IMG/VR virus record: IMGVR_UViG_2671180903_000008
Coordinates: 1 to 23,488 of that record
Strand: one strand, 5' to 3'
DNA length: 23,488 nucleotides
Source: a virus
Lineage: Duplodnaviria > Heunggongvirae > Uroviricota > Caudoviricetes
Both the position numbers and the translations under genes were made by a program. Under the pieces are notes generated by a model, which was not told the DNA's origin, did no database searches, and saw only the letters and a list, made by a program, of their open reading frames with translations. Below are positions 1-19,110 of the stretch, piece by piece (the first letter of the stretch is position 1; each line of letters begins with the position of its first letter).

Positions 1-422
1 CGTTTATAGCCCGTAAACAGTGCGAAACGGTGGAGGTGGATGAGGTTCCTGTTTACCGGCAGAAAAAATCAGAGCAGGAGGATAAACCCCGTCGCCGTGA
101 GGTGGCTGCAATACCACAGCCGGACGAAACAAATCCGGAGATGCCACCGCCCGTGGTGATATCTCCTGGTATTGAGTATATGGAGGACGGTCTTCCCGAT
201 CCGGTGAAAGCGATGGGGCGTCTTCTGGTGGAGAACATTAATACCGACCCCAGGCTGGCGCTGGATGCGGCTTATAAGCTGGCGCAGTTCACACACCATA
301 AAAAAGGCGATGCCGGTAAAAAATCGGCAAAAGGTGATGCCGCGAAAAAAGCGGCTAACCGTTTTGCGGTGCCACCACCTCCCCGGCTGGTGGTGAATAA
401 CCAGAATGAGGAAAGCGGATGA
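1..422 (+). CDS. Phage protein, 3' portion; possibly terminase small subunit. Reading frame is open to the window start, so the gene is partial
   Basis: No in-frame stop between position 3 and 422; stop overlaps the terminase start (ATGA at 419-422); Lys/Ala-rich basic C-terminal tail; position immediately upstream of the large terminase. Confidence 0.4.
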   Translation, partial: FIARKQCETVEVDEVPVYRQKKSEQEDKPRRREVAAIPQPDETNPEMPPPVVISPGIEYMEDGLPDPVKAMGRLLVENINTDPRLALDAAYKLAQFTHHKKGDAGKKSAKGDAAKKAANRFAVPPPPRLVVNNQNEESG

Positions 423-2080
423 TACCTGTATGGAGCACGGCATGTCCGGACTGGGCAGAGCGCCTGAAAAAGGGGCTGTCGATTATTCCGGCTCCGATTT
501 ATCCGGACCAGGCTGCACATGCACTGGCGATTTTTAAACAACTGCGGATTGTGGATGCACCGGGTAGCCCGACATTCGGGGAGTCCTGTGCACCGTGGGT
601 GTTTGACCTGGTGGCGGCCCTGTTTGGCTCCTACGATGCGCAGACCGGTGTTCGCCATATCAAAGAAGTGTTTATCCTTATCCCCAAGAAAAACAGTAAG
701 TCCACGCTGGCCGCGGGGATCATGATGACGGCGCTGTTACTGAACTGGCGGCAGGCGGCGGGCTACACCATTCTGGCCCCGACCGTGGAGGTGGCGGCTA
801 ACGCCTTCAACCCTGCCAGGGATATGGTACGACGGGACGATGATCTGGATGACCTCTGTCAGGTGCAGACACATATCCGGACCATCACCCATCGGGTGAC
901 GGACACCACCCTGAAGGTGGTGGCAGCCGATCCGAATACGGTGTCCGGTATCAAGTCCGTGGGGACACTGATTGATGAACTGTGGCTGTTTGGCAAGCAG
1001 TACAAAGCGGAAGACATGCTACGTGAAGCCATCGGCGGGCTTGCCTCCCGTCCGGAAGGATTTGTGGTGTACACAACCACCCAGTCGAATGAACCGCCTG
1101 CCGGGGTGTTCAGACAGAAACTGCAGTACGCCCGGGATGTCCGTGACGGCAAAATTCATGATCCGCACTTTCTGCCGGTGATATTTGAACACCCTCCTGA
1201 AATGGTGGAAAGCGGGGCTCACCTGCAGATGGAAAACCTCGCCATGGTCAATCCGAATCTCGGTTATTCGGTGGATGAGGCTTTTCTGTACCGGGAGTAC
1301 CGTAAAGCCCGGGAGGCTGGTGAGGAAGCATTTCGTGGCTTCATGTCAAAACATGCCAATGTGGAAATTGGTCTTGCCCTGCGTTCTGACCGCTGGGCGG
1401 GGGCGGATTTCTGGGAGCAGCAGGGCAGGCGCGTCAGCCTGGACGATATCCTGCAGCGCGCTGATGTGGTGACGGTGGGGATTGACGGCGGGGGCCTGGA
1501 TGATCTGCTGGGAATGTACGTGACTGGCCGTGACAGGGAAACCCGCGAATGGCTGGGCTGGGGCCATGCCTGGGCGCATGAAACCGCGGTGGTCAGACGG
1601 AAGAGTGAGGCATCCCGGTTTCAGGATTTTGTGGCCTGTGGAGACATGACGATTGTCCGTCGGGTCGGGGATGACACGGCGGAAGTGGCGGAGTATGTGC
1701 GTCGTATTCATGAGGCTGAGTTACTGGATCATATCGGTATTGACCCGTCAGGTGTGGGGCAGATTCTGGATTCACTGGCGGAAGCCGGGATCCCCGATGA
1801 GAGTGTGGTGGGGATAAGCCAGGGCTGGAAGCTGGGCGGGGCCATCAAAACCACCGAGCGCAAACTGGCTGAAGGGGTGCTGATTCACGGTGATCAGCCC
1901 CTGATGGCCTGGTGTGTCGGTAATGCCCGGGTGGAGCCTAAAGGTAACGCTATCCTTATTACCAAACAGGCCAGCGGGCGGGGGAAAATTGACCCGCTGA
2001 TGGCGCTCTTCAATGCGGTATCCCTGATGTCCCTGAATCCGGAACCGAAAAAGAAAGAATATGCGGTTTTTTTCATATAA
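419..2080 (+). CDS. Phage terminase large subunit
   Basis: 553-aa translation has the overall look of a phage large terminase (ATPase plus nuclease halves); sits at the head of the packaging/head module; start overlaps the upstream stop. Confidence 0.85.
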   Translation: MIPVWSTACPDWAERLKKGLSIIPAPIYPDQAAHALAIFKQLRIVDAPGSPTFGESCAPWVFDLVAALFGSYDAQTGVRHIKEVFILIPKKNSKSTLAAGIMMTALLLNWRQAAGYTILAPTVEVAANAFNPARDMVRRDDDLDDLCQVQTHIRTITHRVTDTTLKVVAADPNTVSGIKSVGTLIDELWLFGKQYKAEDMLREAIGGLASRPEGFVVYTTTQSNEPPAGVFRQKLQYARDVRDGKIHDPHFLPVIFEHPPEMVESGAHLQMENLAMVNPNLGYSVDEAFLYREYRKAREAGEEAFRGFMSKHANVEIGLALRSDRWAGADFWEQQGRRVSLDDILQRADVVTVGIDGGGLDDLLGMYVTGRDRETREWLGWGHAWAHETAVVRRKSEASRFQDFVACGDMTIVRRVGDDTAEVAEYVRRIHEAELLDHIGIDPSGVGQILDSLAEAGIPDESVVGISQGWKLGGAIKTTERKLAEGVLIHGDQPLMAWCVGNARVEPKGNAILITKQASGRGKIDPLMALFNAVSLMSLNPEPKKKEYAVFFI

Positions 2081-2105
2081 CCCTGTTCACCCTGTAACCA
2101 TTATG

Positions 2106-2130
2106 GACCGCTGCGGCGGTTTTTTTATTT
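2106..2130 (+). terminator. Rho-independent terminator-like hairpin after the terminase gene
   Basis: 5-bp GC stem (accgc/gcggt, ~2107-2120) followed by a T7 run, then AGGAGG and a GTG start at 2144. Confidence 0.45.
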
Positions 2131-2143
2131 TCAGGAGGCTGAT

Positions 2144-17940: not shown

Positions 17941-17948
17941 GCGAAAAG

Positions 17949-17973
17949 GGATGCGGCATGTGATGCCGCATCC
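17949..17973. terminator. Hairpin between convergent pepT and roxA, probable bidirectional terminator
   Basis: Perfect 11-bp inverted repeat ggatgcggcat / atgccgcatcc with 3-nt loop. Confidence 0.5.
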
Positions 17974-17988
17974 GGCTTAAATCCAAAC

Positions 17989-19110
17989 TTACCCTTCGAA
18001 GAACCAGTATCCGCTATTGACCAGCGCCGCGAGCATCGCGAGGAATGACGGATCTTCCAGCGCATCGCCAAAATTCTCCGCAGTCAGCGCAATGTTGCTG
18101 GCGAGCGCATCCAGTGCCGGACGGTGCGGGGAATCGATCTTCTCACCATTGGCATACACGTCGTCGCCAATGCGCAATACGCGCAGACCCCCCAGGCGCA
18201 CCAGCACATCACCTTGTTTCAGCGCATCGTAGATTTCATCCGGCTGATAAGGCGGCTCTGGCGGCGCGATATCCAGTTCATGACGTGACTGGGATATAAA
18301 CTCGCCAAACCATTGCTTAAAGTGTTCCGGCTGGTTGATCAATTCGAGCATCATCTCACGCAGTTTATCCATCTCTTGCGGCAGAACGTCCGCAGGATGA
18401 GCGCGAGGTGGAACATCAGGATCGCTGTAGTAGTTGCCGCCCAGTTCACGTTGCAGCACATAATCGGCAAATCCGCTAATCAGTTCCCGCGTATTTGGCG
18501 CGCGAAAACCTACGGAATAGTTCATCGCATTTTCCAGCGCGTAGCCTTCATGCGGGAATCCTGGCGGAATATAAAGAATATCGCCAGGCTCCAGCTCTTC
18601 ATCGATGATGGCTTCGAACGGATCGACCTGTAACAGATCCGGGTGCGGGCAGTGCTGTTTCATTTGCAGCTTTTCGCCCACTCGCCAGCGACGACGTCCG
18701 GTACCCTGAATAATAAACACGTCGTACTGATCGAGATGCGGGCCGACGCCGCCGCCCGGTACAGAAAAAGAGATCATCAGATCATCAATACGCCAGTCCG
18801 GTAGTTCACGGAACGGTCGCATTAGCGCGGCGGTCGGCTCATGCCAGTGGTTCACAGCTTGCACTAACAATGACCAGTTAGTTTCACCGAGATGATCGTA
18901 GCTTTCGAACGGGCCGTGGCTGACCTGCCATTTGCCATCCTGATGACTGACCAGTCGACTGTCGACTTCGCTTTCCATCGCCAGACCCGCCAACTCGTCT
19001 GGAGAGATCGGGTCAATAAAATTATTAAAGCCGCGTTTTAACACCACCGGGCGTTTCTGCCAGTGACGTTCAAGAAAATCGGGCCAGTTTAGAGTGAGTT
19101 GGTATTCCAT
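17989..19110 (-). CDS. roxA: Ribosomal protein L16 arginine hydroxylase RoxA (YcfD)
   Basis: Translation from MEYQLTLNWPDF recognised as E. coli YcfD/RoxA (373 aa); ORF-track start at 19119 adds three residues upstream. Confidence 0.9.
   Translation of the reverse strand: MEYQLTLNWPDFLERHWQKRPVVLKRGFNNFIDPISPDELAGLAMESEVDSRLVSHQDGKWQVSHGPFESYDHLGETNWSLLVQAVNHWHEPTAALMRPFRELPDWRIDDLMISFSVPGGGVGPHLDQYDVFIIQGTGRRRWRVGEKLQMKQHCPHPDLLQVDPFEAIIDEELEPGDILYIPPGFPHEGYALENAMNYSVGFRAPNTRELISGFADYVLQRELGGNYYSDPDVPPRAHPADVLPQEMDKLREMMLELINQPEHFKQWFGEFISQSRHELDIAPPEPPYQPDEIYDALKQGDVLVRLGGLRVLRIGDDVYANGEKIDSPHRPALDALASNIALTAENFGDALEDPSFLAMLAALVNSGYWFFEG

Follow-up and report, generated by a model that had tools for sequence, protein, structure and literature searches.

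When phages such as e14 and phage 21, both of which reside at icd, integrate, they do so in the 3' end of a host gene, to which they provide a surrogate end. The stretch of DNA considered here (termed the window) is an entire draft contig of 23,488 bp, CXZF01000028.1 of the short-read assembly GCA_001283985.1 (virus record IMGVR_UViG_2671180903_000008), both ends of which lie inside mobile-element DNA; it concerns an event of this kind within the spermidine uptake operon potABCD of Escherichia coli, where a prophage resembling CP-933N of strain EDL933 abuts potB, and an event of another kind beyond the nearby gene roxA, where a phage satellite resembling the EDL933 island EcCIEDL933 appears to begin. 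The relatives of both elements have been described: the effector gene espK is borne on CP-933N (PMC3133550); potC is listed among the places where phages, Shiga toxin (Stx) phages included, insert in O157:H7 and in other Shiga toxin-producing E. coli (STEC) (PMC11052207; PMC8065619); and EcCIEDL933, of 15.4 kb, is the prototype of those phage-inducible chromosomal islands that form capsids (cf-PICIs; bioRxiv 10.1101/2022.09.08.507074), its own induction and transfer having been shown with the helper phages HK106 and HK446. The best explanation of the window, to which as a whole a probability of roughly 0.9 is assigned, is that a four-gene chromosomal segment of an E. coli strain, potB-potA-pepT-roxA, lies between two unrelated integrated elements, that potC and potD (together potCD) are displaced by the prophage, and that the layout is of the O157:H7 type. 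This configuration is the standard published one, already known and common.

Homology to K-12 MG1655 is restricted to positions 14501-19187 of the window, at 98.3% identity (BLASTN), and a TBLASTN search with K-12 proteins finds the four genes listed below, at the identities given there. The same search finds none of PotC, PotD, PhoQ and PhoP in the window, the sole match to the PotC query being potB, through paralogous similarity, and the window contains no tRNA genes. The K-12 order is potD-potC-potB-potA-pepT-roxA-phoQ-phoP, just as the initial annotation of this DNA had stated as far as phoQ, and its statement that no potC-like open reading frame (ORF) follows potB is likewise borne out. 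The host genes and the attachment (att) cores at the two breaks are:

14481-15344, minus strand: potB (PF00528), native through ...LLNKK and 100% identical to K-12 over residues 1-271
14501-14512, no strand assigned: prophage attR core CCTTCTTATTCA, inside the potB 3' end (K-12 attB compared with the attR of the window and EDL933 and with the attL of EDL933)
15328-16464, minus strand: potA (PF00005), 100% identical to K-12 PotA
16714-17940, plus strand: pepT, peptidase T (Peptidase_M20), 99.8% identical to K-12
17989-19110, minus strand: roxA, also ycfD (JmjC_2 and WHD_ROXA), 99.7% identical to K-12
19178-19187, no strand assigned: island att core GGACATATTT, in the roxA-phoQ spacer

In K-12 the coding strand of potB ends ...CTG AAT AAG AAG GTG GAA CTC GAA TGA, and the ATG of potC overlaps this stop codon. 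In the window phage DNA begins after AAG AAG G, and the phage arm provides ATEIDN and a stop; aligning the potB end with a reference, as had been proposed earlier, thus shows that the last four residues, VELE, are not native. From an alignment of K-12 attB, the window and both EDL933 prophage ends, the core of ~12 bp has the consensus CCTT(C/T)TTATTCA. The attR core of the window, CCTTCTTATTCA, is identical to that of EDL933, where the matching attL core adjoins potC and the two copies are 46,260 bp apart; at that attL the core is followed by the native sequence TGGAACTCGAATGATC, with the potC Shine-Dalgarno (SD) sequence AAGGTGGA and ATG kept. The potB junction is a classical non-disruptive integration into a gene's 3' end, with the extra consequence that the operon's downstream pair of genes is displaced. 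It resembles e14 and phage 21 in that an attP arm swaps the last codons for another in-frame tail and stop, keeping the ORF, but differs from them in its target, an operon-internal gene boundary with translational coupling, where the downstream pair is cut from its promoter. With CP-933N the window shares, besides the identical attR, the replacement of the PotB tail, an espK gene beside attR and the flanking host genes.

EDL933 indicates what may be expected beyond the end of the contig. Its order is potD-potC-int-xis-...-espK-potB-potA-pepT-roxA-int-alpA-...-capsid-protease-portal-connectors-HNH-terS-terL-phoQ-phoP: directly downstream of the prophage int stand intact potC and potD, at a distance of 46 kb, and the potC-proximal prophage end carries an integrase with Arm-DNA-bind_1 and an excisionase. 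SLK172 also holds both elements and is 100% identical over the attR probe. On the best explanation, a CP-933N-type prophage integrated in the last potB codons, close upstream of the ribosome-binding site of potC; the four pot ORFs would all survive, and potCD would lie a prophage-length away, immediately downstream of int and co-directional with it, the contiguous arrangement expected at the far end of the window's prophage being int, attL (CCTTTTTATTCA), potC and potD. The earlier suggestion that potC and potD lie beyond the prophage, uncoupled from the potA promoter, gains support from this analogy. At the EDL933 attL, phage arm and core together form a mini-ORF, ATGAATAAAAAGGTGGAACTCGAATGA (minus strand, L003 2712-2745), which reads ATG AAT AAA AAG GTG GAA CTC GAA TGA (MNKKVELE), imitates the potB terminus and has with the potC start the very overlap that potB has in K-12. 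That it preserves potB-potC translational coupling is possible in principle, but no SD that would serve it is obvious, and it is treated as incidental. Outside the window, the other side of potD also varies: K-12 has ycfZ-ymfA between cobB and potD, whereas in EDL933 cobB is directly beside potD (L002 2480-3726 versus L003 708-864).

At the second break the initial annotation had placed an integrase-led island beyond the start of roxA, and this is what is found: roxA starts at 19110 and retains ~67 bp of native upstream sequence, foreign DNA begins 78 bp on, and an integrase gene follows at 19359-20588. In K-12 the core GGACATATTT lies directly 3' of the phoQ stop codon, within the 75-bp phoQ-roxA spacer; in EDL933 copies of it stand 15,461 bp apart, at both ends of the island; the window holds one copy. 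A PICI-type satellite, with a P4-type integrase and alpA, would integrate at GGACATATTT beside the phoQ stop codon, and by comparison with EDL933 phoQ would be untouched by the integration while roxA would be separated from phoPQ. The EDL933 island, at 15.46 kb and with capsid, protease, portal, connectors, HNH, terS and terL, agrees with the published EcCIEDL933 in size and gene content. The window resembles it in the integration junction beside roxA and in int and alpA, its nucleotide sequence being 98.7% identical to that of the EDL933 island as far as position 21339, and differs from it at 21340-23241, between alpA and DUF4222. On the sequence evidence, then, both host/element breaks appear to be clean site-specific integration junctions.

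To assess how common such junctions are, 5,426 complete E. coli genomes were searched with 400-nt probes that span each K-12 junction. Of these genomes, 3,800 have the potB|potC junction intact and ~1,626 (~30%) have it interrupted, and 4,822 have the phoQ|roxA junction intact and ~604 (~11%) have it interrupted; the window-type attR junction occurs in 654 and the window-type roxA|int junction in 600. At least 432 genomes are window-like on both flanks, counted as those with at least 80% of positions 12800-20800 covered in one place, which requires the flanking DNA of both elements. By a match to at least 80% of a 1.8-kb probe (a sequence match and not a measure of ORF integrity), potC-potD is present in 5,424 genomes, every split-site genome among them, and operon splitting has therefore not led to the loss of potCD. 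The splitting of potABCD at this site is itself real but ordinary, and already known.

That the core block stands between two independent insertions, another claim of the initial annotation, likewise stands. The insertions are independent because their att cores differ (CCTTCTTATTCA at potB versus GGACATATTT at roxA), because their integrases are of unrelated subfamilies (Arm-DNA-bind_1, lambda-type, in the EDL933 prophage counterpart versus P4-type Arm-DNA-bind_3 in the island), because the two sites are occupied at different rates (~30% versus ~11%), and because some genomes, L021 for example, have the island with an intact potABCD. Entry would have been mediated by a separate tyrosine recombinase for each element, and at a separate att site.

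For transcription, the arrangement in EDL933 suggests that potCD would be cut off from transcripts of the potA promoter. There, int ends 166 nt upstream of the potC ATG and is transcribed in the same direction, and a consensus scan of this stretch finds no sigma-70 promoter and, on the int/potC strand, no terminator-like site. Because neither is found between int and potC, read-through from int to potCD fits, and the source of potCD mRNA would most likely be read-out from int or else promoters too weak for the scan. On the potB side, a consensus scan of the window finds no minus-strand terminator-like site downstream of potB and before espK. An inverted repeat occurs in the phage att arm at 14418-14451, ~30 nt past the new potB stop, with a 14-bp stem (GGCATGCT.TTTACT...AGTAAA.AGCATGCC); it could be a binding feature for recombination proteins or a weak terminator, and it was not called as a terminator, its folding energy being unexceptional (z = -1.6) and a U-tract lacking. 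Since no terminator-like site precedes espK and the hairpin is of this kind, read-through is possible, and potAB transcripts may continue into espK. The scan gave nothing informative in the roxA/int spacer. Altered spermidine uptake, as suggested in the initial annotation, is plausible. A lambda-lysogen array paper that mentions potCB was set aside, as it is about K-12 lambda lysogens and not about the potB/potC site.

The prophage itself fits the earlier description of a potB stop (14481) followed by AT-rich foreign DNA (35-38% GC at ~13500-14500) and then by prophage genes (lambdoid late genes at 1-13340). Its features are listed below; single genes were assigned by Pfam on called genes unless another basis is given:

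1-13340, plus strand: late (morphogenesis) region of a lambdoid prophage, from Pfam families and collinearity with EDL933 CP-933N
1-422, plus strand: terS, 3' end
419-2080, plus strand: terL
2144-4069, plus strand: protease-capsid fusion
4281-5645, plus strand: portal
5642-6703, plus strand: repeat-containing ORF, located after the portal gene
6700-8170, plus strand: connector, head-closure, HK97-gp10 and gp17 genes
8237-8953, plus strand: major tail (tail tube)
8959-9638, plus strand: tail chaperones
9690-12932, plus strand: tape measure, 1,080 aa
12925-13266, plus strand: gpM-like minor tail
13266-13340, plus strand: gpL, first ~25 codons alone, the remainder being deleted
13339-14500, minus strand: AT-rich right arm of the prophage (GC 35-38%), matching the espK region of EDL933 and SLK172 and carrying espK and the attP-derived arm
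13426-14118, minus strand: shortened espK, 230 aa, matching EDL933 espK

The element thus has a lambda-like late gene order, from terminase through M to the start of L (Pfam and CP-933N collinearity), and from terS to gpL it is collinear with CP-933N at 96-97% identity. It differs from CP-933N in its tape-measure gene, which is truncated in EDL933 but full-length in the window, and in two deletions. Relative to CP-933N, ~12 kb are missing (window 13266-13345), from gpL codon ~25 to a site lying 87 bp downstream of espK; the corresponding DNA of EDL933 comprises the rest of gpL, a gpK-type (C40 peptidase) tail gene, an Arc/Ant module, nleL, espN, an IS2 copy and effector-gene fragments. The deletion takes out tail-tip genes, and the prophage is therefore defective. 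The deletion junction, at ~13340, has a GAAAT microhomology, and both of its sides are oriented as in EDL933. It occurs in 0 of the 5,426 complete genomes; since eight independent draft contigs, drawn from different assemblies and runs, nonetheless share it at 100% identity, the deletion is real and lineage-specific. The other is an in-frame deletion of 669 bp in espK, by which the 453-aa EspK of EDL933 loses residues 108-330: most of the central part is gone, and the N-terminal ~107 and C-terminal ~120 residues are kept, the former presumably including the secretion signal. In the contig collection, at least 27 blocks contain exactly this 230-aa EspK. The internal prophage deletion and the shortened espK are the only lineage-peculiar features of the window.

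Within the ORF at 5642-6703 lies a 162-bp tandem repeat (5807-6237; 2.7 copies, 97% matches). The ORF encodes 353 aa in the window versus 461 aa in a related prophage (L013), and the annotation of EDL933 assigns the equivalent stretch to a frameshifted portal gene; the copy number of the repeat appears to vary between prophages.

The island portion of the window contains the following:

19188-23488, plus strand: left end of a PICI-type phage satellite (Pfam), running off the contig end
19359-20588, plus strand: P4-type integrase (PF13356, Arm-DNA-bind_3, and PF00589)
20953-21141, plus strand: alpA (PF05930)
within 19188-23488, plus strand: small early ORFs, then the start of a DUF4222 gene, which is cut by the contig end

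The integrase at the island end is followed by alpA, as in Gram-negative PICIs (Pfam). Related islands possess rep as well as packaging modules, and relatives at the roxA site carry either a cf-PICI module, as in EDL933, or the lambda-type capsid/Nu1 module of a classical PICI, as in L021; the window island is accordingly best described as a putative PICI-type satellite that the 4.3 kb in the window do not assign to the capsid-forming or the classical kind. Also in the island, a plus-strand ORF of 388 codons (21199-22365), with no Pfam match and an odd, Cys/Ser-rich translation, is antisense to two small minus-strand ORFs (21516-21701 and 21759-21956), one of which matches DUF3950; public annotations differ, some calling the long ORF and others the small genes antisense to it. 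Judged from where they lie, the long ORF's final ~67 codons may be the equivalent of a gene annotated as Icd-like in EDL933. Near-identical PICI early cassettes, including the window's 79-aa protein, also occur at another att site, beside pntB/ydgH (L020, L022 and L023), with a different integrase copy and with cf-PICI or lambda-type packaging modules; they illustrate modular exchange among E. coli PICIs.

Several points weigh against the explanation by two integrations and a displaced potCD. The contig ends inside the prophage, so that the int/potC end in the window's strain, like the phoQ end of its island, is placed by reference to genomes with identical junctions; the island is seen over its first 4.3 kb only; draft contigs that encode the window's EspK variant or its TerL all break in the prophage before the potC end, one 75-kb contig extending the island side only. 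The promoter and terminator scans recognize consensus sequences, which real promoters can escape, and no published work on potCD expression in such lysogens of O157 or STEC was found in the literature. Finally, the internal deletion is found in no complete genome, and it is conceivable that potC was moved elsewhere by a rearrangement between prophages. STEC and enteropathogenic E. coli genomes hold many near-identical lambdoid prophages that recombine with one another, and the late genes at 1-13340 might have come from such a prophage, joined to espK by inversion or translocation, in which case potCD would not be at the far end. The absence of the ~13340 junction from all complete genomes and the breaking of the contig in repeated phage DNA are in keeping with this. 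Yet the block at 1-13340 is collinear, from terS to gpL, with the prophage of this very site, and its junction with the espK region has the signature of a simple deletion; a rearrangement is thus judged very unlikely.

The absence of potCD and phoPQ from the window, and nothing further, would also be expected of an organism in which the K-12 order is natively absent or from which these genes have been lost. This is highly improbable, and effectively refuted already, by the precise att cores at both breaks, by core genes 98-100% identical to those of E. coli, by the presence of potCD in all but two of the genomes searched, every split-site genome included, and by the genomes with identical junctions, which have potC and phoQ at the far ends of the elements. 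A short-read draft contig ending in repeats might, again, be a chimera in which phage and chromosomal reads were wrongly joined; however, the two host/element junctions recur in 654 and 600 complete genomes respectively and the lineage-specific internal junction recurs in eight independent contigs, and an artifact of this sort is next to impossible.

The integration of both elements, with potCD displaced but retained, remains the preferred account, and from it a more far-reaching proposal can be drawn: that integration rewires the operon, potCD coming to depend on read-out from the int region, such that spermidine uptake tracks the state of the prophage and excision alone fully restores it, and that potAB are read through a terminator-less 362-bp spacer into the type III secretion system effector gene espK, coupling espK to the polyamine-regulated potA promoter. 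This proposal is considered unlikely, but if it were true then, with ~30% of E. coli genomes occupied at potB/potC, a regulatory effect of lysogeny would be widespread and unstudied. How potCD are transcribed in the ~30% of genomes with a split potABCD is otherwise a modest and routine question of polarity, on which no paper was found. For annotation, the meaning is more direct: the missing potCD and phoPQ are to be regarded as displaced rather than lost, the altered PotB C-terminus as a normal integration scar, and the flanks of the core segment as a phage satellite on one side and, on the other, a prophage that is defective and carries an effector gene.

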